Positions 19,459 through 30,985 of a stretch of 64,000 nucleotides of DNA are shown piece by piece. The notes beneath the pieces are model-generated. The model was not told where the DNA came from and ran no database searches. It saw only the letters and a program-made list of their open reading frames with translations. Each line of letters begins with the position of its first letter. Within the stretch, counting starts at the first letter, position 1. The position numbers were made by a program, and so were the translations under genes. The stretch is from Candidatus Omnitrophota bacterium (GTDB lineage: Bacteria; Omnitrophota; Gorgyraeia; Zapsychrales; JANLHA01), in the NCBI GenBank assembly GCA_029560465.1, contig JAKQKX010000063.1, positions 3,796 to 67,795 on the forward strand, read 5' to 3'.

Positions 19459-20637
19459 ATGCACACGTTCGCGTATCAGAAAAATCAGCGTTATTTCGCG
19501 CAAATCGCGGATGGGCTGGAGGACTTGGGGAAGGAGGAGCTCGCCCGCCTCGGCGCGACAGACGTGAAGCCCTCCTACCGGGGGATTTATTTCTCGGCCG
19601 CCCCGGCCGCCCTGTACCGCGTCAATTACAGCGCCCGGCTCATCAGCCGGGTGATGGCCCCGTTGTTGACCTTTGATTGCCACAGCGACCGGTATTTATA
19701 TAAAACCGCGCGGTCCCTGCCCTGGACCGATTTGCTGACCCTTAAAACCACGTTCGCGGTGTTCACCAACGTGGCCAACAGCAATATCCGCCATTCGCAA
19801 TATGCCTCGCAGAAGCTGAAAGACGCGATCGTGGACCAGTTCCGGGACGCCTGCGGCGACCGGCCGCAAGTGGAACCGTTGTCCCCCGACGTCTGGATCA
19901 ACCTGTATATCCACAACAATAAAGCGACGATCAGTTTGGAGACGTCCGGCGGGTCTTTGCACCGCCGCGGCTACCGGCAGGAATCGGTGGAAGCGCCGAT
20001 GCAGGAAACGGTGGCGGCCGCGGTCATCCAGTTAAGCGGCTGGGACGGGGAACGGCCGCTGTACGACCCCATGTGCGGCTCCGGCACGTTGTTGACCGAA
20101 GCGCTCATGCGCGCCTGCCGGATCCCGTCCGGCTACCTGCGGGCGCGTTTCGGATTTGAGCGGCTGCCGGATTTTGACGCCGCGGTTTGGGGTAAAGTGA
20201 AACAGGAGTGCGACAAGCAAATCCGGCCCCTGCCGGCCGGGCTGATCGGCGGGAGCGACGTGTCCCGGGCCGCGGTTGAGGTGGCGCAAAAAAATTGCCG
20301 GATGCTGCCGGGCGGGGGGCAGATCACGATCAAGACGCGGCGTTTTCAGGATATCGAGGCCCTTGAGGACGCCGTGATTATCTGCAATCCGCCTTACGGC
20401 GTGCGCATGAACACCGCCCGGCAGGCGTCGACACTGCTCAAGGAATTCGACACCTTTTTGAAAAAGCGCTGCCAGGGGTCCACCGCCTACGTGTATCTCG
20501 GCAAAAAGGAGCTGCTGCCCCAGATCGCGCTTAGGCCAACCTGGAAAAAGCCGCTCAAGAACGGCGGCTTACAGGGTTTCCTGACAAAGTACGAGATCGC
20601 GGGGGAAAAGAAGGGGAAAGGAAGCGGACGCCATTGA
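19459..20637 (+). CDS. THUMP-domain class I SAM-dependent RNA methyltransferase (RlmL/COG0116-like)
   Basis: N-terminal THUMP-like region, DPMCGSGTLLTEA (motif I) and NPPYG (motif IV). Confidence 0.8.
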   Translation: MHTFAYQKNQRYFAQIADGLEDLGKEELARLGATDVKPSYRGIYFSAAPAALYRVNYSARLISRVMAPLLTFDCHSDRYLYKTARSLPWTDLLTLKTTFAVFTNVANSNIRHSQYASQKLKDAIVDQFRDACGDRPQVEPLSPDVWINLYIHNNKATISLETSGGSLHRRGYRQESVEAPMQETVAAAVIQLSGWDGERPLYDPMCGSGTLLTEALMRACRIPSGYLRARFGFERLPDFDAAVWGKVKQECDKQIRPLPAGLIGGSDVSRAAVEVAQKNCRMLPGGGQITIKTRRFQDIEALEDAVIICNPPYGVRMNTARQASTLLKEFDTFLKKRCQGSTAYVYLGKKELLPQIALRPTWKKPLKNGGLQGFLTKYEIAGEKKGKGSGRH

Positions 20638-20663
20638 AGCGGCCCTGTTTATCTGTGTTTAAT

Positions 20664-20866
20664 TTGGGGGACATGTACCTAATTCGCTTATGAATTAGGT
20701 GCGTGTCCCCGGAATTTACTGCTTATACGACGTTCCGGATAAGTGATATTACAGGGCAAATGGATACCATTTTATAAAAAACAGGGCTATAATAATGAAA
20801 AATCGGGGTAAAAATTGAATTATTCAAATGCCAAGAAACAACGCCAACCAGCAAATGGATAAGTCG
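20664..20866 (+). repeat. Copy 1 of a ~200-bp repeated intergenic element containing a 19-bp-stem hairpin (20667-20710)
   Basis: Near-identical to 27733-27972 (a few substitutions plus a 47-nt indel). Hairpin GGGGACATGTACCTAATTC-GCTTAT-GAATTAGGTGCGTGTCCCC. Lies between a GC-rich upstream gene and an AT-rich downstream cassette. Confidence 0.85.
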
Positions 20867-20905
20867 TTAAAGAAACGTTCGGCATGGAAACGCATATAAC
20901 ACAAA

Positions 20906-22054
20906 ATGACTATTGATCAAAAATATCAAATTGATTTTGTATTAGTAACTCACACCAAAGGTATCTTTTTTAATCCACATCGTCCTGAAGGTTTAGCGTT
21001 CACGCCTTCCACTAAAACAGGGTTGCGTTTCGTTCTCAAGCCATCAGACCCAAAAGGCGATGCGTGTGGTCATCGGGAGGGACTTGAATGCAGACTTTAT
21101 TCATCATATCCGGCAACGAAAGAACAGTTTGATTTTGTAGTTGCAATAAATAATCATAGGGTTATGCTTCGCGTTGCTGATGATATTTCTCTCCCATATA
21201 AACCGAAAGAAGAAATCCTTATAAATAAGGATGGTAAATACAAAGACGGTTTTTCTCCGCGTCGTTATTTGTGTCCATCTGATATTCAACAACTAATAAA
21301 AAATGTCGAGTCGGAACTAGCCTCTCAAACAAGTCAGTTTCTTAAACTGCTTCGATGGCGTCAAGGGATTGATGCTCCAGGCGAAGTTATAGAACACCGA
21401 TCACTTTACTGGAAAGTTGAAGCGGGGGATTGTCATTCAGTCCCTTTAGACGGTGGGTCGCACCATACGGTTGTAGTGCCGGAGATGTATGGCATACATT
21501 GGGATTCTGCTGATTCAGTAGATTTACAAAAGCTTTGGGCACAGGATGATATTGCAGAGCCCCTTGGGCATGCTTTAGTAAGAGAAGCAGCAGCTCTTGC
21601 TTCCGAGTCTCCAAGGAGTGCAATATTAATTATGACAGCAGCACTTGAAACAGCGGTTAAAATGCATATTAGCAACATTGCGCCTGATACGGATTGGCTA
21701 ATGGAGGAAATACCGTCACCACCAATTTTCAAGATGCTACGAGACTATATCCCTTTAATTCATGGTAGACGAGGCAGTGGGTTAGTCTGGTGGGTGAATG
21801 TGAACCCCTTTGTTAAGAAGGTGCAGAAACTTATTGAACTTCGTAACAAGGTCGCGCACACTGGGAAAATTCCTCAGGATGCTGCCCCCATTCATGAGAA
21901 CCTCGAATTAGTATCCGATCTGCTCTATTTGTTGGATGTGTTGGCTGGTCACGATTGGGCAAAGTCACTTGCAAGTCATAAATTTCGTGAAGCACTTGGT
22001 TGGCCCAACCCAACTCATGGCAGGACGACAAGCAAGATAACATGGGGACATTAG
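20906..22054 (+). CDS. AT-rich hypothetical protein with C-terminal HEPN-like domain (Rx4H motif; DUF4145/Apea-like)
   Basis: GC far below window average. C-terminus ...ALETAVKMHISN...VKKVQKLIELRNKVAHTGKIP contains the R-x4-H HEPN signature after a conserved helix; N-terminal ~250 aa unknown. Confidence 0.5.
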   Translation: MTIDQKYQIDFVLVTHTKGIFFNPHRPEGLAFTPSTKTGLRFVLKPSDPKGDACGHREGLECRLYSSYPATKEQFDFVVAINNHRVMLRVADDISLPYKPKEEILINKDGKYKDGFSPRRYLCPSDIQQLIKNVESELASQTSQFLKLLRWRQGIDAPGEVIEHRSLYWKVEAGDCHSVPLDGGSHHTVVVPEMYGIHWDSADSVDLQKLWAQDDIAEPLGHALVREAAALASESPRSAILIMTAALETAVKMHISNIAPDTDWLMEEIPSPPIFKMLRDYIPLIHGRRGSGLVWWVNVNPFVKKVQKLIELRNKVAHTGKIPQDAAPIHENLELVSDLLYLLDVLAGHDWAKSLASHKFREALGWPNPTHGRTTSKITWGH

Positions 22055-22275
22055 AACTAAACAAAGTGGGAATGCCGAACAAGCGCATTCACGCGGGCGC
22101 CGCTACGCGTCGCCGGTGATGCACAGGCGTTAGATGTAAAATAAGGAACAATAATGGACATAATTTCCCCATTAATAATAGTAGTTTTATTTTACAGAAT
22201 TAAATTAGGTGATGAGCGAAAATTCGGGATATTAGCTTTTGATATTCCTAAATAGTAAGCGTTCGGGGGTAATTA

Positions 22276-23268
22276 ATGATGGATAACGCAAAATTGATAT
22301 TTCAACAGTTCGCAAATGATGGTATTGACTATATTTATCAGAATATACTAAGTAAGTCATTAGAAGATACATGGGTTGAATGTAAAGGCAAAAGCGATCC
22401 CTCGCACCCAACACTAGACGAAAAGGATAAGTCAAATTTTGCAAAGAATTTGTCTGGTTTTGCTAATACAAGCGGTGGCGTTTTAATTTTTGGGTTAAAA
22501 GCAACAAAGAATTCAGAAGGATTTGACGTCGTTACAGGGGTACAGCCTATTAAAGACATAGATTCATTTGAAGCTGCTTTAAGAGAACAGGAACCTCGTA
22601 TAGTTGAAAGGGCAATATCAGGAATAGAATATAAAAGGATTTATACTGACAAAAATAAAAAAGAAGGCATTTTGCTTGTTTATGTCCCCGAGAGTACCAA
22701 TCCGCCTCATAGAAGTGTGAAAGACAAACATTTTTATCTGCGGGCTGGAGGGTCTTGTTATCCAATGGATTTGCCTCAGATTGAAAGTTTGGTACTTAAA
22801 AATATAAAACCAGAATTAGAAATAGATTTCTTTTTTCTTACGAATATGAATATATCAGATCCCCAGCAAGATTCAAGGGTGGATTTCATTATGGATTTTC
22901 AAATAAAAAATATCGGTAGAGCCATGGCCAAGAATATATTCGTAAGATTAGAGTTTCCTGGTGGGGGTATATATGAAATTTTCCCAGCTAAAAAAGGTGT
23001 CTATGATAAAGCCAACACGGAAACAAAAAGTGTCGTCTACGATTGGCATTATGATAAACCTATCCATCCTAATATATGCGTTCCAATAGAAGAGGCGACG
23101 CTTTTAGTATCTTGTAACTGCAGAATACCTCTTAGTTTTCCTCGATTCTTATTTGATGTTTCCATTTGTGCCGAGAACATGACATTGAAGTCAAAGAATT
23201 ACAATAAAAGCGGAGACGAAATGTTTAAGTTATTAATGGATCGAGGGGTAAGAAGAAAAATAACATGA
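22276..23268 (+). CDS. AlbA_2 / Schlafen-like (divergent AAA, putative DNA-binding) domain protein
   Basis: EDTWVECKGKSD...LSGFANTSGGVLIFGLK matches the AlbA_2 core (E..E.K....AFANT.GG.L..G). AT-rich. Confidence 0.6.
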   Translation: MMDNAKLIFQQFANDGIDYIYQNILSKSLEDTWVECKGKSDPSHPTLDEKDKSNFAKNLSGFANTSGGVLIFGLKATKNSEGFDVVTGVQPIKDIDSFEAALREQEPRIVERAISGIEYKRIYTDKNKKEGILLVYVPESTNPPHRSVKDKHFYLRAGGSCYPMDLPQIESLVLKNIKPELEIDFFFLTNMNISDPQQDSRVDFIMDFQIKNIGRAMAKNIFVRLEFPGGGIYEIFPAKKGVYDKANTETKSVVYDWHYDKPIHPNICVPIEEATLLVSCNCRIPLSFPRFLFDVSICAENMTLKSKNYNKSGDEMFKLLMDRGVRRKIT

Positions 23269-23283: not shown

Positions 23284-23361
23284 TTATCACATCCTCGGCA
23301 TTAACGCCGTGATGTTTTTTGTCATCGTTGCCGCTGCGCTTTATGGCAAGTCAACCGCGCT
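23284..23361 (+). pseudogene. 78-bp fragment of the cation-diffusion-facilitator gene (identical to 30234-30311)
   Basis: Perfect nucleotide identity over 78 bp to the internal part of the CDF gene at 30132-30773 (encodes LGINAVMFFVIVAAALYGKSTALLA); flanks differ on both sides. Confidence 0.85.
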
Positions 23362-23463
23362 GCTGGCTCTTTGGGGTGTCCATAACAACCGCATGAACCG
23401 GATCGTGTCCCTGTTGGGCCACTCCGGGTTATGCGCGGCGTTCGACGAAGAAAGGAGGACGCA

Positions 23464-24202: not shown

Positions 24203-24841
24203 ATGGAATTTGAAGAGTTTGTGTATAAAGTACAAGATTTGCCGGTTATCATTACAGAATATTTTTCTGCCGGGCAGAAGGATAGTCTGCCGATGGAGGT
24301 CCAGTTAAGTCGTTGGAAAAAGTCCGGTAAAATTATTCAACTCAAGCGGGGGGTATATCTTTTAGCAGAACCTTACCGAAAACGGCAAGTTTACGAATTT
24401 TATCTTGCAGGCCTTCTCCAACAGCCTTCCTATATCAGTTTGGAAAAAGCTTTTGAATTTCATAATCTTATCCCTGAAGCCGTAAATAGCTTTACCAGCG
24501 TTACTCCTAAAAGACACGCATGTTATGAGACCCCTGTTGGTCGTTTTGATTATCGGCACATTCGAGAGTCATTATTTTGGGGATATCAATCCGTAACCCT
24601 TTATGGCCAGACGGCGTTTATGGCTTTGCCTGAAAAGGCGCTTTTGGATTTTTTTTATCTTTCCCCGCATGAGCCGGATGAAGATTATTTGAAGGAGATG
24701 CGTCTGCAAAATTTAGATTTAATTGAACCTGAAAAAATGGAGTATTTTTCGCGTAGATTTGGAAAGCCGAAGTTGCGGCGCACCGCCGAGGCGATGATCA
24801 AACTGTGTGAAAAAGAAAGACAGGAAGAAAAAACGTTATGA
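24203..24841 (+). CDS. abiEi: AbiEi-family antitoxin / transcriptional regulator (type IV TA, abortive infection)
   Basis: About 210 aa with an N-terminal winged-HTH-like region; 4-bp ATGA overlap with the downstream AbiEii nucleotidyltransferase gene. Confidence 0.65.
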   Translation: MEFEEFVYKVQDLPVIITEYFSAGQKDSLPMEVQLSRWKKSGKIIQLKRGVYLLAEPYRKRQVYEFYLAGLLQQPSYISLEKAFEFHNLIPEAVNSFTSVTPKRHACYETPVGRFDYRHIRESLFWGYQSVTLYGQTAFMALPEKALLDFFYLSPHEPDEDYLKEMRLQNLDLIEPEKMEYFSRRFGKPKLRRTAEAMIKLCEKERQEEKTL

Positions 24842-25659
24842 AAGATTATTGTTTAGAACTGGCGGCTGCTAAAAGTGGGTATGACGCTAAACTCAACACG
24901 ATGCGGGAATATTTACAGGCGTATATTCTGCGAATTATGCAACAACAGCATATTTTTAGAACGACAGCTTTTATGGGTGGTACGGCCTTAAGGTTCATAT
25001 ATAAATTACCCCGTTTTTCTGAAGACCTGGACTTTTCTCTGGTTGATCAACCGGATTGGAAGTTTGCCGATTTGATTGCCAATATTAAAAAACAATTTAT
25101 GGATGCTGGATATAATATTCATGTCAAATACAAGGATCAGAAAACAGTGCAACATGCTTTCTTCCATTTTGATCAACTTTTGTATGATGCGGACCTGTCA
25201 CCTATACGAGATCAAAAATTCAGCATCAAATTGGAGGTTGATACCAATCCACCGCTGGGTGCGGGAGTAGAAACAAAGGTTTCCAATATCTATTTCCCGG
25301 TCAGTTTCTTGACGTACGATCTGCCATCTTTGTTTGCCGGAAAGCTTCACGCTTTGTTGAGCCGCGGGTTTACCAAGGGCCGTGATTTTTATGATTTGGC
25401 CTGGTATCTTTCCCGCTTTGATGGTGGGATTAAACCAAATTTCAACATGCTTAATCATGCGCTTGTGCAGTCCCATTGGCAGGGGGCGGAGTTAAATGAA
25501 AAAAACGGGTGGTCTGAATTAACAAAAATCGTCAAGGCGGCTGACTGGAAAAAGGTCAGAGAGGATGTTGAGAAATTCCTTGAAAATCCCAAGGATATGG
25601 ATGTTTACACGCAAGAGACTGTGTTGGGATTAGTGGCGAGTTGGGATAAAGAAGAATAA
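24838..25659 (+). CDS. abiEii: AbiEii/AbiGii-family nucleotidyltransferase toxin (DUF1814)
   Basis: FMGGTALRFIYKLPRFSEDLDF matches the GGTAL...R.SxDxDF nucleotidyltransferase motif of AbiEii. Confidence 0.8.
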   Translation: MKDYCLELAAAKSGYDAKLNTMREYLQAYILRIMQQQHIFRTTAFMGGTALRFIYKLPRFSEDLDFSLVDQPDWKFADLIANIKKQFMDAGYNIHVKYKDQKTVQHAFFHFDQLLYDADLSPIRDQKFSIKLEVDTNPPLGAGVETKVSNIYFPVSFLTYDLPSLFAGKLHALLSRGFTKGRDFYDLAWYLSRFDGGIKPNFNMLNHALVQSHWQGAELNEKNGWSELTKIVKAADWKKVREDVEKFLENPKDMDVYTQETVLGLVASWDKEE

Positions 25660-26352: not shown

Positions 26353-26592
26353 ATGGATAAACAGATTTTTATATCTTTAGCGTGTATCATCGCGGGATTA
26401 TTCAGCTCAATTTGCGCCGGGATGGATTTTGATTTTTTTATGAATCACAGAAAAGCCCGATTCTTTGTGAAAATATTGGGCAGAAACGGCGCTCGGATTC
26501 TTTATGTTTTACTCGGCATCGCCATGATTATTGTTGGCGTTGGTTTTTTTACCGGGATCATCCCCTTGCAAGGGGAGCCTGTTTTTCAGTGA
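26353..26592 (+). CDS. Small membrane protein (2 TM), hypothetical
   Basis: ORF track; two hydrophobic helices; RBS AAGGAG. Confidence 0.35.
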   Translation: MDKQIFISLACIIAGLFSSICAGMDFDFFMNHRKARFFVKILGRNGARILYVLLGIAMIIVGVGFFTGIIPLQGEPVFQ

Positions 26593-26687: not shown

Positions 26688-27491
26688 ATGGCAAAAGCAT
26701 ACGTTCACGGATACGATCCGCGGGAGAACATTCGCTTACAGGATCAGGCCACCACCTTGGTTGACCTGCTGCATTCGGACACGGCCTATCCGGCGGGAAG
26801 CCGCGTCCTGGAAGCCGGCTGCGGAGTCGGCGCGCAAACGGTGACCTTGGCGAGAAACAGCCCCGGGGCGTCCATCGTGTCCATTGATATCGCGGAGGAA
26901 TCGCTCGCGCAGGCGGAGCGGATTGTCCGGGCGGCAGGGATGCCCAACGTCCGGTTCCAGCAGGCGGACATCTACCACTTACCCTTTGCCCCGCAATCAT
27001 TTGACCACGTCTTTGTTTGTTTTGTGCTGGAGCACTTGAGAGAGCCGGGCGCTGCCTTGCGGAAGCTGAAAGAGTGCCTGCGGCCGGGCGGAACCATCAC
27101 CGTCATTGAAGGCGACCACGGCTCTGCCTGCTTTCATCCCGACAGCGATGCGGCGCGCGCCGCGATTCACAGCCAGGTCGAATTGCAGTCTCGCGCGGGC
27201 GGCAACGCGCTCATGGGAAGGGCGCTGTATCCGTTGCTGGTTACAGCGGGCTATCGTGATGTCCGGGTGTCCCCCCGGATGGTATATGTTGATTCCAGCA
27301 AGCCGGAACTGGTCGACGGATTCACGAAGAAGACATTTACGGCGATGATCGAGGGTGTGCGTCAATCGGCGATCGAGGAGGGCGTCATCGAGCCCGCGCT
27401 GTTCGACCAGGGAATCAAGGACCTGTACCGAACGGCCGAGCCCGACGGCACATTCTGCTACACCTTTTTCAAAGCCCTGGGAAAAGCATGA
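26688..27491 (+). CDS. Class I SAM-dependent methyltransferase
   Basis: VLEAGCGVGAQTV motif I, acidic motif II ISIDIAEE, FDHVFVCFVLEHL; RBS GGGAGGA. Confidence 0.75.
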   Translation: MAKAYVHGYDPRENIRLQDQATTLVDLLHSDTAYPAGSRVLEAGCGVGAQTVTLARNSPGASIVSIDIAEESLAQAERIVRAAGMPNVRFQQADIYHLPFAPQSFDHVFVCFVLEHLREPGAALRKLKECLRPGGTITVIEGDHGSACFHPDSDAARAAIHSQVELQSRAGGNALMGRALYPLLVTAGYRDVRVSPRMVYVDSSKPELVDGFTKKTFTAMIEGVRQSAIEEGVIEPALFDQGIKDLYRTAEPDGTFCYTFFKALGKA

Positions 27492-27520
27492 ACGCCGAAC
27501 CATGAAAGGAGATTCTTAAC

Positions 27521-27733
27521 ATGCAGGTATTGGGGGTTTTGCTGTTGATCGCTGGTTTGGTCTTTGGAGCCGTTGGTATCTGGAGGAAAAAGAATCCTGG
27601 AGGCCCTGTCTTCTTTGGTCATGTAACGGACAGCATCCGGGACCTCTATGGTGTTAAAACGCCTGGCCATTGGCCGATCATCGTGGGGGCAATTTTGTTC
27701 CTGGCCGGCCTTGTCCTCGTGCTGCTGAAGTAG
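27521..27733 (+). CDS. Small 2-TM membrane protein
   Basis: Two TM helices; RBS AAAGGAG. Confidence 0.45.
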   Translation: MQVLGVLLLIAGLVFGAVGIWRKKNPGGPVFFGHVTDSIRDLYGVKTPGHWPIIVGAILFLAGLVLVLLK

Positions 27734-27972
27734 GCCGGGTTTTGGGGACAGATGACTTAATTCGCTTATGAATTAGGTGCGTATCCCCGGAATTTTGGAA
27801 TTTGCCCGGAATTTCTGTGTTAAAGTGGAAACCCTGATTATCCGACGTTCCGGATAAGTGATATTACAGGGCAAATGGATACCATTTTATAAAAAACAGG
27901 GCTATAATAATGAAAAATCGGGGTAAAAATTGAATTATTCAAATGCCAAGAAACACCGCCAACCAGCAAATG
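27733..27972 (+). repeat. Copy 2 of the repeated intergenic element with hairpin (27735-27779)
   Basis: See copy 1. Carries an extra 47 nt with three reiterations of CCGGAATTT; again directly 5' of an AT-rich cassette. Confidence 0.85.
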
Positions 27973-28011
27973 GATAAGTCGTATAATAATTGTTCGCTAT
28001 AAGGGATATAG

Positions 28012-28605
28012 ATGACAGAGCAAGAAAAGAGGAATATTGAAGAATCAATTGATAACGTAAAAAACGCCTTCCAGAGAGCGCCAAACGTCCTTCTTACTGA
28101 GGAAGATCTTCGTGTGCACCTTTGCCATAGACTTATCAATCATTTCGGTACGGAAAATAGGACAAACGATGGCGACATATCAATATCATTACATACGGAA
28201 ATACGCTGGTACGGGAATGGAAATCTAAAGACTCGATCTGATATTGTGCTTGTTGACGTTTCAAGTCTTGACGTTAGTAAGCATTTTAAACTGCCTAGCA
28301 AAGGTTATGGATTCAACATTCCTAAGGCTATTATTGAATTGAAATTCCGCCGTCCGAACGGAGAAGCTACATCCCAATTTCTTAAGAAGATACGTCAAGA
28401 TATCATAAAGCTTCAAGAACTCATCCGAGTTTTTGAGACTGTTCAAGGACAAAACACGGTTGCGTTCTGGATGGTCGTATTTGACAAGAAGCACAATATT
28501 CAGTGTAATATTGACGAACTAAAAATTCCACCCGGTGTGAATGTTACATATTGTTTTGCAGAAAGTAGCGAACAAACGCCTGCACCGGACGCTGTGCGCC
28601 GGTGA
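28012..28605 (+). CDS. AT-rich hypothetical protein with PD-(D/E)xK nuclease-like motif arrangement
   Basis: Helix with E (EEDLRVHLCHRLINHF), beta-strand ending in D (RSDIVLVD), then AIIELKF (ExK); spacing typical of restriction-endonuclease-like fold; GC roughly 35%. Confidence 0.5.
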   Translation: MTEQEKRNIEESIDNVKNAFQRAPNVLLTEEDLRVHLCHRLINHFGTENRTNDGDISISLHTEIRWYGNGNLKTRSDIVLVDVSSLDVSKHFKLPSKGYGFNIPKAIIELKFRRPNGEATSQFLKKIRQDIIKLQELIRVFETVQGQNTVAFWMVVFDKKHNIQCNIDELKIPPGVNVTYCFAESSEQTPAPDAVRR

Positions 28606-28639
28606 GGTGCCGCGTTAGATTTATAGAAAAGGGGGTTTT

Positions 28640-29017
28640 ATGACTCAGCTAATAATTGGTTATTTAATATCTACAGTTGTTGGAGCATTTATCATGAAGT
28701 TTGTTATGGAGAAAAAAGTATGGGGAAAATGGCTGCAAGATAAAGAAGAAAAAAATGAAGATAAGAAAAAAAATATAAAAAAAATATCAATGCTAGTGGG
28801 CATTCTTGAACGTGTTTTATATACTACCGCAATAATAATGGGCCAATATTCTTTTATTGCTATATGGTTAGGTATTAAAGTTGCACCAAAATGGGGCAAG
28901 TGGCATGAGGAAGAAAATCGTGGTATCTTTAATGCATTTTTGATAGGCAATGCGTTATCTATTATCATAGCCTTCGTGGGAGCATGGGTTATTAAACCAA
29001 GTATTCTTAAAATATAA
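28640..29017 (+). CDS. Small 4-TM membrane protein with K/E-rich cytoplasmic loop
   Basis: Four hydrophobic helices; loop KEEKNEDKKKNIKK; RBS AAAGGGGG; very AT-rich. Confidence 0.5.
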   Translation: MTQLIIGYLISTVVGAFIMKFVMEKKVWGKWLQDKEEKNEDKKKNIKKISMLVGILERVLYTTAIIMGQYSFIAIWLGIKVAPKWGKWHEEENRGIFNAFLIGNALSIIIAFVGAWVIKPSILKI

Positions 29018-29193
29018 TCAGGAAATCTAACACCTATAAGGCCCCGGAAGTCGAGATAAAGAGTTTGCCCGACGAAGATTTTTAAAGATTTTTGAAATTT
29101 ATAAAGAAGAGTTGTTCATTGGATTTGTGTAAAAATGTCTATCTGTGGATTGGGCGGCAATCCGGTTGTCGGTATATTGAGGAGGTTGCGTTC

Positions 29194-29907
29194 ATGGTTC
29201 TACGAGAATGTCCGTCTGAGGAAGAGTGGAACGAGATTTTTGGCAATTCTCTATTCCCGGATATCCTAAAATTTGTAGATAGTTTAAAACGTTCTGGTAA
29301 GACTTATGAAGATGGCTTTGAATTTATACGGGGAATAGAAACGCGTGAATATTACTTTCAACTTCGCCACAGAATAGCAGATACAGCAATAAGTTATGTG
29401 TTTGTAGTGTACTTCTATAATAAGGGTATACCTGATAAACGTTGGTCTGTTTCTCCCGGCAGGGACGGATGTTCTGTGGAATACTTCCCAGATTTTGAAA
29501 ATATACATTATGAAATAAAGAAATGGTTCGACTACTATTCTGACGTTTTCTACTATAAGTTATTTTCGGCCCTAGACATCGTTGGTCATATCTTAAACAA
29601 CACTCAAAATCTTAAGATCAAAAAAAGTAAAGTTTCGTTTTCCAGAAGCCTCAGAAAACTTGAGGGCATCAATGATGAATTATTTGAAACCATTAATTCC
29701 ATCAATCAAAATCAGGATTTTAAGACGGCCCAAGAAATTAGAAATGATATAACACATAATTACTTGCCAAGCTCAGTGGGGGTTTCTGTAACTATTGATG
29801 AAAAGCAAGGAATCGTTGGAGAAAGAGCTTACATTACCTCCTGTGATATCATTAACAATATTAACTCAATGCTTAAATTGTTTAAGCAAATTTTAGACGC
29901 TATATGA
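29194..29907 (+). CDS. Abi-like protein with C-terminal HEPN motif (Rx4H)
   Basis: TAQEIRNDITHNYLPS carries R-x4-H; start chosen at ATG 29194 preceded by GAGGAGG (track lists a TTG at 29092); AT-rich. Confidence 0.5.
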   Translation: MVLRECPSEEEWNEIFGNSLFPDILKFVDSLKRSGKTYEDGFEFIRGIETREYYFQLRHRIADTAISYVFVVYFYNKGIPDKRWSVSPGRDGCSVEYFPDFENIHYEIKKWFDYYSDVFYYKLFSALDIVGHILNNTQNLKIKKSKVSFSRSLRKLEGINDELFETINSINQNQDFKTAQEIRNDITHNYLPSSVGVSVTIDEKQGIVGERAYITSCDIINNINSMLKLFKQILDAI

Positions 29908-30131
29908 AAAATAGCCCAACAAAAAATGCAGCGGATGCGTAGTCAGGCCCCTGATTTTGGGCGTTGTGTGAAAAAAAACAGGGGAAACTTGTCCACACAA
30001 ATAATCCAACCCTGCCATCTGTTATGGGGCAATACATCACCCCTTTCTTTGTACAGGATAAAAATGGCTAAAAATATTCCACTAACGATTCAATTGAGCG
30101 GATCGGCCTTGCGGCCTCCCGCTTATTTTGG

Positions 30132-30773
30132 ATGTTAGATCGCTATAAGGATTGCGCTATGAGTGGTTGTTGTGACAAGGATTGTTCTTTAGAACGCCTG
30201 CGGGAACGGCAGCGCGGAACGTTGCAAATTGTCCTCGGCATTAACGCCGTGATGTTTTTTGTCATCGTTGCCGCTGCGCTTTATGGCAAGTCAACCGCGC
30301 TGCTGGCTGACAGTCTTGATAATCTTGGAGACGCATTGACATACGGCCTTAGCCTCTACGCGGTTTCGAGGGGCACTGCCGTTAAGGCCAAAGTCGCCCT
30401 GTTTAAGGGCGGGCTTATTTTCCTGGCGGCTGTTACCGTGGCCGCTCAAATTATTTACAAGTTTTTTGTCCCAGGTCTGCCCATTTTCGAGGTTATGGGC
30501 GCGTTCAGTCTTCTTGGCCTTGCCGCAAACTCCCTTTGTCTTTTTCTGCTGTGGCGACATCGCCACGAAGATGTGAATATGAGTTCCGTGTGGGAGTGCT
30601 CGCGAAACGACATCGCATCCAATCTTTCGGTTTTCGTGGCGGCCGGCGCGGTCTGGTTCACCGGTTCAGGCTGGCCTGATATTGTGGTTGCCGTGGGTCT
30701 CGTGTGGCTTTTAATGCGTTCCGCTCTTCGCGTTATTTCTTCAGCGATGGTAGAGCTTCGTACGGCAGCCTGA
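30132..30773 (+). CDS. Cation diffusion facilitator (CzcD-like) transporter, short form (213 aa, TM domain only)
   Basis: Cys-rich N-terminus CAMSGCCDKDC, TM helices with DSLDNLGDALTYGLSLYA (CDF signature-like). The cytoplasmic C-terminal domain found in most CDFs is absent. Confidence 0.7.
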   Translation: MLDRYKDCAMSGCCDKDCSLERLRERQRGTLQIVLGINAVMFFVIVAAALYGKSTALLADSLDNLGDALTYGLSLYAVSRGTAVKAKVALFKGGLIFLAAVTVAAQIIYKFFVPGLPIFEVMGAFSLLGLAANSLCLFLLWRHRHEDVNMSSVWECSRNDIASNLSVFVAAGAVWFTGSGWPDIVVAVGLVWLLMRSALRVISSAMVELRTAA

Positions 30774-30920
30774 CAATTCGCTCAACACGGACGGGTCAAA
30801 GCACCGCAGGAGTAAAACAACAACCGCTTCGCGGACAACCGCAGGACAAGGCTGTTGAGCAACAGTTCGAGGATGAATAAAGAATATGTCTAGGGACCTG
30901 CTCCCCGGGAAAGACTGCGA

Positions 30921-30985
30921 TTGCAGGATCAGGCGGCCACTCTGGTTGACTTGTTGCGTTCCGGCCATGGGGCGCTTCCGGCTGT
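30921..30985 (+). pseudogene. Diverged remnant of a paralogous methyltransferase N-terminus (homologous to 26733-26795)
   Basis: About 72% nucleotide identity over ~58 nt; encodes RLQDQAATLVDLLRS versus RLQDQATTLVDLLHS in the intact MTase; reading frame diverges afterwards. Confidence 0.35.

Follow-up and report, generated by a model that had tools for sequence, protein, structure and literature searches.

The window, the whole 64-kb stretch of DNA that was analysed, carries a cassette of three co-directional genes. The first, g1 (28012-28605), encodes a protein of 197 aa with a PD-(D/E)xK (restriction-endonuclease) fold that belongs to an unannotated family. The second, g2 (28640-29017), follows after a gap of 34 nt and encodes a small membrane protein of 125 aa from a large unannotated family. 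The third, g3 (29194-29907), encodes a 237-aa HEPN protein of the Cthe_2314 family with the motif R183-x4-H188, and is predicted to be a stand-alone effector of the RNase type. Between g2 and g3 lies a + strand spacer of 176 nt (29018-29193), of which only the last ~32 nt are common with g3 relatives. The three open reading frames are present as a preliminary description of this DNA had listed them, all on the + strand, and they are regarded as real genes because each has a family of homologues at the protein level. An assembly artefact is unlikely for the cassette, since contigs from two other datasets are identical to the window over their extent. One is a JGI metagenome contig (L008), which contains the entire cassette through the hemerythrin gene, and the other is a contig of an ENA metagenome assembly (L009), which ends inside g3.

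The GC content of the cassette is 0.367 as a whole (g1 0.407, g2 0.315, g3 0.350), in line with the value of about 35% first given for the genes. The compositional foreignness attributed to the cassette is evident from the comparison of this 36.7% with a window mean of 51.8%. The latter also corrects the figure of about 57% that had been given for the surroundings; the flanking core genes range from 0.53 to 0.61. As described earlier, the genes sit between a repeated hairpin-containing element and a gene for a CDF cation-efflux protein (30132-30773, + strand; PF01545, E=6e-14), which is taken as the right border of a cargo slot. All genes from 19.4 to 34.4 kb lie on the same strand and show a mosaic GC content. 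The proposed hotspot placement agrees with a variable region rich in defence genes, which includes an AbiEi/AbiEii pair at 24203-25659, 2.4 kb upstream of the cassette, as well as genes for a Schlafen/AlbA_2 protein and a possible HEPN protein in another AT-rich cargo (20906-23268) downstream of the first copy of the element. PADLOC-DB 2.0 returned no family for any of the three proteins at E<=1, in agreement with the original remark that this combination was not recognised as one of the named defence systems. A sequence search of the PDB with profiles of all three families returned nothing.

The repeated element is ~220-260 nt long and occurs exactly twice in the window, where no second copy would be expected by chance. 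Copy B (27740-27996, + strand) combines a strong hairpin (about 27741-27792) with a conserved AT-rich tail and stops 15 nt short of the start codon of g1. Copy A (20663-20881) precedes the other AT-rich gene pair. The copies align in two segments with 89% and 95% identity, and copy B has a 38-nt insertion. The hairpin folds with -33 kcal/mol (z = -2.83). A simple scan for the sigma-70 consensus detected no + strand promoter in the element, and consensus sites for promoters and terminators were not more numerous than in shuffled sequences. In addition, a 77-nt segment of the CDF gene (30232-30308) is repeated with 100% identity at 23292-23368, behind the other cargo, so that a different AT-rich cargo is framed by copy A and the CDF fragment. 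This duplicated frame hints at a strain-variable cargo slot in the source organism.

For g1, the ordered E...D...ExK elements proposed earlier were found to be E63, D77, E109, and K111, all of them invariant in 60 family members. In the structural model, the catalytic D77 (RSDIVL) and E109-L-K111 (IIELK) lie on strands 72-81 and 104-113, and the alpha-beta-beta-beta-alpha-beta core of PD-(D/E)xK enzymes is present. On the basis of this model, g1 is a predicted DNA nuclease of the BamHI/BglII-like PD-(D/E)xK type. The neighbours of its relatives are mostly restriction-modification and defence genes. In 21 of 80 loci, the g1 relative starts -23 to +8 nt behind a gene for an Eco57I/N6_Mtase protein of about 1150-1230 aa, and this subclade behind large N6-adenine DNA methyltransferases is arranged like a restriction-modification pair. 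The nearest relatives, with 79% and 71% identity, reside in defence islands with HsdR, SduA_C, AAA_15/21, GmrSD_N or AAA_13, and are likewise orphans without a neighbouring methyltransferase. No homologue of a partner methyltransferase was detected in the 64-kb window by tblastn with the methyltransferases that accompany g1 relatives; the sole NPPY protein of the window is an rRNA methyltransferase of the RlmL type (19459-20637). A restriction-type nuclease that is active as an orphan would be expected to be toxic, suggesting either an unseen partner or a regulated or modification-dependent enzyme. Plasmid relatives of g1 were not found. The family is well conserved and comprises at least 80 clusters, for which neither Pfam nor PADLOC nor NCBIfam provides a model; its members repeatedly accompany large N6-adenine methyltransferases and are at home in defence islands.

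The four transmembrane segments and the K/E-rich loop assigned to g2 are both recognizable in the protein. Hydrophobic stretches extend over residues 1-23, 49-84, and 96-121, the middle one being long enough to fit two helices, so that four segments are probable, and residues 26-50 contain nine K/R and five D/E. The gene is preceded by an AAGGGGG ribosome-binding site, and its start at 28640 is supported because the N-terminal transmembrane segment is conserved. A word-index search retrieved 3 relatives, and an exhaustive HMMER profile search retrieved 1552 representatives at E<=1e-3, of which 409 remained at E<=1e-10. Across the family, G54, W76, and K80 do not vary, and E57, R58, and Y61 hardly do. 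No match to g2 was obtained in PADLOC or the PDB, or in Pfam/NCBIfam above the curated threshold. Its relatives occur beside an HNH nuclease (L007), near a SIR2 gene and a DUF4145 protein (a faint Pfam match) with an Rx4H-like motif (L004), and as a solitary gene flanked by about 0.9 kb of non-coding DNA on either side (L106). They are not present in about 0.7 Mb of defence-rich loci, and no plasmid relatives were found for g2 or for three further members of the family. Fusion partners of the family comprise one M48 peptidase and are otherwise uninformative, the only cluster name, "MFS family permease", is evidently spurious, and an alignment of 42 sequences was too diverse for a pattern scan. 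Taken together, g2 is considered a membrane protein of a widespread unannotated family, unlinked to either neighbour, and it may have a role outside defence.

The third gene has a clear family assignment. Its product matches PF18730 (HEPN_Cthe2314) with E=5e-28 and 98.7 bits against a cut-off of 27.1, over model positions 4-158 of 174, and all 35 of its homologous clusters carry the same domain. The HEPN Rx4H motif read earlier in IRNDITHN stands, with R183, H188, and N189 invariant in 32 members. An AGGAGG sequence at 29180-29185 precedes the ATG, and conservation with three relatives (L010, L011, L012) starts about 32-35 nt before it; both fit the ATG at 29194, so a longer TTG frame from 29092 is not the gene. 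Relatives of g3 appear monocistronic and are located beside Type ISP/Type III restriction systems, Abi_C, and Fic, with further ones carried by plasmids and, as tblastn revealed, by SPbeta-like Bacillus phages. For Cthe_2314, Anantharaman et al. 2013 (PMC3710099) list the gene context as "None detected". No experimentally established activity or role was found for the family. Judged from its sequence, g3 is a predicted RNase-type HEPN effector that stands alone.

The preliminary description had joined the three genes into one candidate defence system, a claim that depends on whether the families travel together. By tblastn and HMM searches, no g2- or g3-family frame was detected in any of 84 loci with g1 relatives, and no g1- or g2-family frame in any of 18 loci with g3 relatives. 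Nor were g1- or g3-family frames found in the three other contexts of g2 relatives (seven loci, including L004-L007 and L106-L107). The search for g2 in the g1 and g3 loci used a broad HMM derived from 151 members of its family. Of the three genes, g2 is tested least stringently, because only three independent contexts are available outside the source genome. Co-conservation of the triplet in other genomes, the absence of which had been set beforehand as speaking against a single system, was never observed. Small membrane proteins that are not homologous to g2 are not regular neighbours either: small frames with at least two transmembrane segments, on the same strand and within 1.5 kb, were present in 10/84 g1 loci and 1/15 g3 loci.

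The borders of DNA homology lead in the same direction. Between g1 and its relative in L013, the DNA is 84% identical, and the similarity is confined to positions 27994-28590 of the window. For g3, blastn revealed 88% identity with L010 and L011, confined to 29162-29934. Homology to the nearest relatives therefore does not run on beyond the borders of g1 and g3, at odds with a cassette that moves as one module, and the closest relatives of g1 (79%) and g3 (85%) are found in quite different surroundings. The GC contents of the three genes (0.41, 0.32, and 0.35) are also unlike one another. At the junction of the g1 and g2 modules, a GC-rich + strand stem-loop (28578-28612) reaches from the last codons of g1 across its stop, and the homology to L013 breaks at 28590, just within it. 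The stem-loop was classified as terminator-like by the scan; its folding energy of -26.3 kcal/mol corresponds to z = -1.3, which is not significant.

Because the relatives never travel together, the cassette is best understood as a stack of independent genes and not as a new three-gene system. With a probability of roughly two in three, the chromosome here has a cargo slot, within a variable stretch rich in defence genes, in which three independent single-gene modules have been stacked head to tail; we infer that each of them would act independently. Several features speak against independence, namely adjacency, co-orientation, shared AT-richness, and the short g1-g2 gap. Adjacency and the 34-nt gap would allow co-transcription and a lineage-specific functional link. 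As no new tripartite defence system emerges, neither cloning nor naming the cassette as such a system is warranted. The analysis removes a false lead, and the remaining points are modest additions to the catalogue of defence islands.

A more elaborate view of the slot builds on the repeated element. Together, the element (~250 nt) and the 5' portion of the CDF gene would mark out a dedicated site of cargo exchange, at which promoterless single-gene defence modules are captured and expressed from the shared element, following an integron-like logic but without attC sites or an integrase. The stack of g1, g2, and g3 would be one allele and the HEPN-like/Schlafen pair at 20906-23268 another. This proposal is based on the two element copies, each ending 15-25 nt ahead of a different cargo, on the exact 77-nt CDF fragment, and on module homology that begins 18-32 nt before the start codons. 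As a joint claim it is regarded as unlikely.

The stack of single genes could also conceal a two-gene unit with an unrelated third gene. It might consist of g2 and g3, as a HEPN-TM-like pair or as a toxin whose immunity protein sits in the membrane, or of g1 and g2, as a nuclease with a membrane partner. The distance of 34 nt between g1 and g2 agrees with such a unit, as do the g2 relatives beside the HNH nuclease and near the Rx4H-like DUF4145 protein and SIR2. However, no g1 or g3 locus contains a g2-family frame, one g2 relative stands alone, and small membrane proteins are rare neighbours of g1 and g3 relatives, which makes a two-gene unit rather improbable. Two of the three g2 contexts (L007, L004) have a nuclease-type gene nearby, which could hint that the membrane protein is loosely paired with nucleases.

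To a similar degree, it is doubtful that the three are prophage remnants or common accessory or housekeeping genes whose AT-richness is a coincidence. The three families have no experimentally proven function, and the g2 family is missing from the defence-rich loci that were searched, as might be expected of such genes. Against this stand the restriction-modification and defence genes that dominate the neighbourhoods of g1 relatives, the intact catalytic motif and the defence contexts of the g3 HEPN family, and the AbiE and Schlafen-type genes of the same island. None of the three proteins matched PHROG, and pattern scans of IMG/VR did not find relatives of any of the three families; such scans are less sensitive than tblastn, which recovered g3 relatives in SPbeta-like phages. 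A phage origin of the cassette was set aside on these empty scans, although g3 relatives occur in such phages.

The claim that a g1 nuclease, a g2 membrane effector or sensor, and a g3 HEPN RNase form an undescribed abortive-infection system can appeal to adjacency, a common strand, common low GC, and a defence-rich region, as well as to the lack of any named system matching the proteins. HEPN and membrane parts can cooperate, as exemplified by HEPN-TM (PMC12948488). Nevertheless, no two of the families occur together in 84 g1 loci, 18 g3 loci or three other g2 contexts, homology is broken at the g1 and g3 borders, the nearest relatives live in unlike surroundings, and the 176-nt spacer between g2 and g3 is non-conserved. 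A joint system of all three genes is therefore very unlikely. Hardly credible is an integron-like array of promoterless cassettes caught at attC-type sites behind a common promoter: single-gene modules with homology from 18-32 nt ahead of the start codon, one strand throughout 19.4-34.4 kb with mosaic GC, one type of upstream element before two different cargos, and isolated RYYYAAC-/GTTRRRY-like heptamers in the spacers would suit it, but the spacers have no paired attC-like structure (z = -1.3, +1.6, -0.2 against shuffles), g3 homology stops 27 nt past the stop codon, too short for an attC site, neither an integrase nor a transposase was found among the window frames tested, and Rfam gave no matches, so this integron/CALIN reading was dropped on the spacer folds, the homology ends near stop codons, and the missing integrase. 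Non-coding or antitoxin RNAs in the spacers were likewise rejected. At the gathering threshold, Rfam returned two distant tRNAs only, a permissive search of 27400-30400 gave one chance-level match (E=0.14), and the g2-g3 spacer, with a fold z of +1.6, had no Rfam match.

If the modules are independent, g1 would serve on its own, in defence or as a toxin, by cutting DNA. The product of g3 would be a latent RNase, presumably a dimer of the kind typical of HEPN proteins, with a composite Rx4H site. Upon infection or another trigger, it might cleave cellular RNA and thereby abort the infection. This proposal for g3 is modelled on other single-gene HEPN defences.

Compared with known systems, g1 resembles Type II enzymes in fold and departs from them in other respects. 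Identity to the structural group of BamHI, BglII, BstYI, OkrAI, and BstEII is only 8-11%, and the Pfam models of these enzymes do not match g1. Conservation in the g1 family, with 40-79% identity across many environments, is unusual among restriction enzymes. The adjacent cognate methyltransferase of Type II restriction-modification is absent for g1 here, whereas it is present for about a quarter of its relatives. Among the membrane effectors of defence systems, no described transmembrane effector family is homologous to g2. HEPN-TM, named as an immune system encoded by phage-inducible chromosomal islands (PICIs) in a 2026 review (PMC12948488), shares with the cassette a HEPN and a membrane part in a defence context. 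In the cassette, these parts are separate genes with a non-conserved spacer of 176 nt, and their families never occur together. HEPN-MNT and AbiE-type pairs have in common with g3 a HEPN-type toxin in a mobile, AT-rich setting; however, the nucleotidyltransferase antitoxin of HEPN-MNT/type VII toxin-antitoxin systems does not adjoin g3 or its relatives, and there is no nucleotidyltransferase domain in g1 or g2.

Single-gene HEPN defences such as Tha, ApeA, and the Abi proteins are latent until infection and act thereafter as RNases. ApeA and lactococcal AbiD/F/J/U2/V belong to this group (in part PMC3710099). Tha, from Staphylococcus aureus prophages, is a published example, a single HEPN gene whose product acts as a non-specific RNase (PMC11087260). 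No sequence kinship with g3 extends past the HEPN motif in any of these proteins, PADLOC, whose models cover many of these proteins, gave no match to g3, and a counterpart of the antisense inhibitor gene of Tha is not evident at g3. Within the Cthe_2314-like HEPN family (PF18730; PMC3710099), g3 is an ordinary member, in keeping with the usual length of about 230-250 aa and with the solitary context on record for the family. Like Tha, ApeA, and the Abi proteins, g3 stands alone, and its relatives are likewise found in temperate phages (SPbeta-like) and on plasmids. The Cthe_2314 HEPN family thus appears as a solitary and highly mobile gene of chromosomal islands, plasmids, and SPbeta-like phages, and is therefore a clean candidate for a test of single-gene abortive infection.

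The AT-rich cassette is an ordinary defence-island stack, and its three genes, encoding a PD-(D/E)xK nuclease-like protein (g1), a small membrane protein (g2) and a Cthe_2314-family HEPN protein (g3), are probably independent modules, a reading given a probability of about two in three. The co-directional plus-strand ORFs of the preliminary description were found in place: g1 at 28012-28605 (197 aa), g2 at 28640-29017 (125 aa) and g3 at 29194-29907 (237 aa). The start of g3 is best read as 29194, where an ATG follows AGGAGG (29180-29185); conservation with three relatives, in DNA and protein, begins about 32-35 nt before this codon and does not support a longer ORF from a TTG at 29092. The claimed contrast in composition is real, with 36.7% GC in the cassette (g1 40.7%, g2 31.5%, g3 35.0%), against a background nearer 52% than the 57% first quoted (window mean 51.8%; flanking core genes 53-61%). 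Both described flanks are present, a repeated hairpin element upstream and a CDF transporter gene downstream (30132-30773, plus strand). An assembly artefact is unlikely, since contigs of two further datasets match the window without a difference throughout their length: one from a JGI metagenome (L008) spans the whole cassette, and one from an ENA metagenome assembly (L009) ends inside g3.

From an RlmL-type gene (19459-20637) as far as the CDF gene, GC-poor and GC-rich stretches form a mosaic in which all genes lie on one strand. The hairpin-bearing element upstream of g1 (copy B, 27740-27996, plus strand) has a sole other copy in the window (copy A, 20663-20881); the copies are 89-95% identical, where chance predicts none, and the hairpin folds at -33 kcal/mol (z = -2.8). 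Copy A is followed by a gene for a 382-aa protein (20906-22054) that matches HEPN_RiboL-PSP weakly (E=3e-3) and has an ELRNKVAH (Rx4H) motif, and by one for a 330-aa Schlafen/AlbA_2 protein (22276-23268, E=1e-15), neither of which matches PADLOC. Then comes a 77-nt fragment of the CDF gene (23292-23368), 100% identical to 30232-30308. Further on lie a zinc-ribbon membrane protein, AbiEi/AbiEii (24203-24841 and 24838-25659; overlapping stop and start, 41% GC), which form a complete type IV toxin-antitoxin/abortive-infection pair, a lipoprotein-like ORF, a 79-aa Imm17-family membrane protein (26353-26592, E=7e-10) from a polymorphic-toxin immunity family, with no toxin gene evident beside it, a small-molecule-type SAM methyltransferase (26688-27491), a 70-aa membrane protein, copy B and g1-g2-g3. 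A second scar of rearrangement lies just 3' of the CDF gene, in the form of a diverged 5'-end fragment of the SAM methyltransferase gene (30879-30961, 71% identity). The frame of element, cargo and CDF 5' part occurs twice in the window, each time around a different AT-rich cargo, which points to a strain-variable cargo slot; the two frames look like two alleles of one slot, tandemly joined. That the repeated element marks an integron-like capture slot is improbable. An integron as such was rejected on the spacer-fold and homology-border tests, and neither integrase nor transposase was found among the window ORFs tested.

The independence of the three genes is indicated by the surroundings of their relatives. 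None of the 84 loci with a g1 relative (80 from metagenomes and four by exact look-up) carries a g2- or g3-family ORF, as judged by tblastn and family HMMs. The 18 loci with a g3 relative, drawn from genomes, metagenomes, plasmids and phages and retaining 850 nt or more on the upstream side in 14 cases, contain no ORF of the g1 or g2 family, and a broad g2 HMM made from 151 sequences did not change this. The three other contexts of g2 (seven loci) hold no g1 or g3 relative. DNA homology is similarly confined. The closest relative of g1 (79% protein and 84% DNA identity) matches the window only over 27994-28590, and that of g3 (85% and 88%) only over 29162-29934, so that each appears as a separate module of ORF and ribosome-binding site. 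This border comparison covers g1 and g3, g2 having no close DNA relative; a lineage-specific link of g2 with one neighbour is doubtful. Small membrane proteins able to stand in for g2 are rare, occurring near 10 of 84 g1 loci and 1 of 15 g3 loci. The single three-gene defence system of the preliminary description is more doubtful still, as the triplet is co-conserved in none of these loci, the outcome which that description had itself named as contrary to it.

The PD-(D/E)xK fold proposed for g1 is right, since a confident AlphaFold model (pLDDT 88.9, pTM 0.86) has D77 in the second strand of the core and E109-x-K111 in the third. These residues are invariant in an alignment of 60 sequences, together with E30, D32, R34, S57, H61, E63, R65, W66, S76, P95, K97, R113 and D158. 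Within this superfamily, the protein comes closest in structure to the BamHI/BglII group. It has no threshold-passing match in Pfam, PADLOC, NCBIfam or PHROGs, its homologues form 80 clusters of which none is named, and the family has no model in these four libraries searched. Genes for restriction-modification and defence make up most of the neighbourhood of the family. A large adenine methyltransferase of Eco57I/N6_Mtase type (about 1150-1230 aa), which matches the PADLOC Type IIG, DrmMI and PglX models, precedes the g1 relative at a distance of -23 to +8 nt in 21 of 80 loci, an arrangement typical of methyltransferase-nuclease pairs. Five to eight of these loci continue with an RmrA-like M78 peptidase, a DUF4411 gene and a PLD-SNF2 helicase. 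The relatives nearest to g1 (50-79% identity) are without a methyltransferase partner and are found either at the margins of defence islands containing HsdR, SduA_C, AAA_15/21 and GmrSD_N or behind an AAA_13 ATPase. The window, too, lacks a DNA methyltransferase of the kind found as partner.

Around distant g1 relatives, a conserved operon was observed (L050 1723-11424; also L037, L049, L069 and L075). It comprises genes for a SarA/Rot-like regulator, a methyltransferase of Eco57I type (about 1230 aa), whose stop overlaps the start of the g1 relative, the g1 relative itself, an RmrA-like M78 peptidase, a DUF4411 protein and a PLD-SNF2 helicase (about 1070 aa) with the HKD+Snf2 model as top PADLOC match, followed by DrmD models. 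The operon may represent a restriction-modification-like system not described before, in which a RosmerTA-like pair is embedded.

The g2 protein belongs to a large family, unannotated like that of g1. Beside the K/E-rich loop reported earlier, it has three hydrophobic stretches, of which the middle one is twice as long. An indexed search returned only 3 relatives, and an exhaustive HMMER profile search 1552 representatives (E<=1e-3), in most cases of 110-200 aa. G54, W76 and K80 are invariant and the E57-R58 pair nearly so; no relative was found in Pfam, PADLOC or PDB. In one protein (P0233, 704 aa), the family forms the C-terminal domain beside an M48 peptidase domain. The other gene contexts are varied: g2 relatives adjoin TrmB, SIR2 and a DUF4145 (faint Pfam match) protein with an Rx4H-like motif (L004-L006), adjoin an HNH nuclease gene (L007), or stand alone beside IS110 and integrase remnants (L106-L107). 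At L007 (231-1774), a 191-aa member lies 69 nt upstream of the HNH endonuclease gene. At L004 (638-3417), the g2 relative is followed 3' by a TrmB-like wHTH, a 196-aa protein, the DUF4145-like protein (242 aa) and SIR2; no member of this cluster matches PADLOC, and the cluster is possibly a candidate defence module in its own right.

The HEPN assignment of g3 is unambiguous (PF18730, E=5e-28), and 32 relatives show no variation at R183, H188 and N189 of its IRNDITHN (Rx4H) motif. The family was described in 2013, and g3 is a plain representative of it. The relatives of g3 are solitary genes, separated from their neighbours on both sides by a few hundred nt, which agrees with the "None detected" entered as gene context for Cthe_2314 (Anantharaman et al. 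2013, PMC3710099). They adjoin Type ISP and Type III restriction genes, Abi_C and Fic, and occur on plasmids of Desulfosporosinus, Leptospira, Clostridium, Staphylococcus and Bacillus. SPbeta-like Bacillus phages carry them as well, at most about 1 kb from the record end in phi3T and related records and about 21 kb from one end in SPbetaL8; the genes in SPbetaL8 (21328-22080) and phi3T (127366-128010) have no annotation beyond hypothetical protein. A possible partner for a family member is hinted at in one case only, by a 193-aa ORF without family match, located 4-22 nt upstream of one g3 relative on two different contigs (L101 5397-5978, L102 349-930).

The cassette would thus consist of three autonomous genes. 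The g1 product is predicted to be a restriction-type DNA nuclease, and such an orphan may spare its host through dependence on modification, through regulation, or because a methyltransferase encoded at another place in the genome serves it. By analogy, g3 would encode a latent HEPN RNase acting as a single-gene abortive-infection effector. A published precedent for such single-gene action is Tha, a single HEPN protein whose non-specific RNase activity is switched on by phage tail proteins (PMC11087260).
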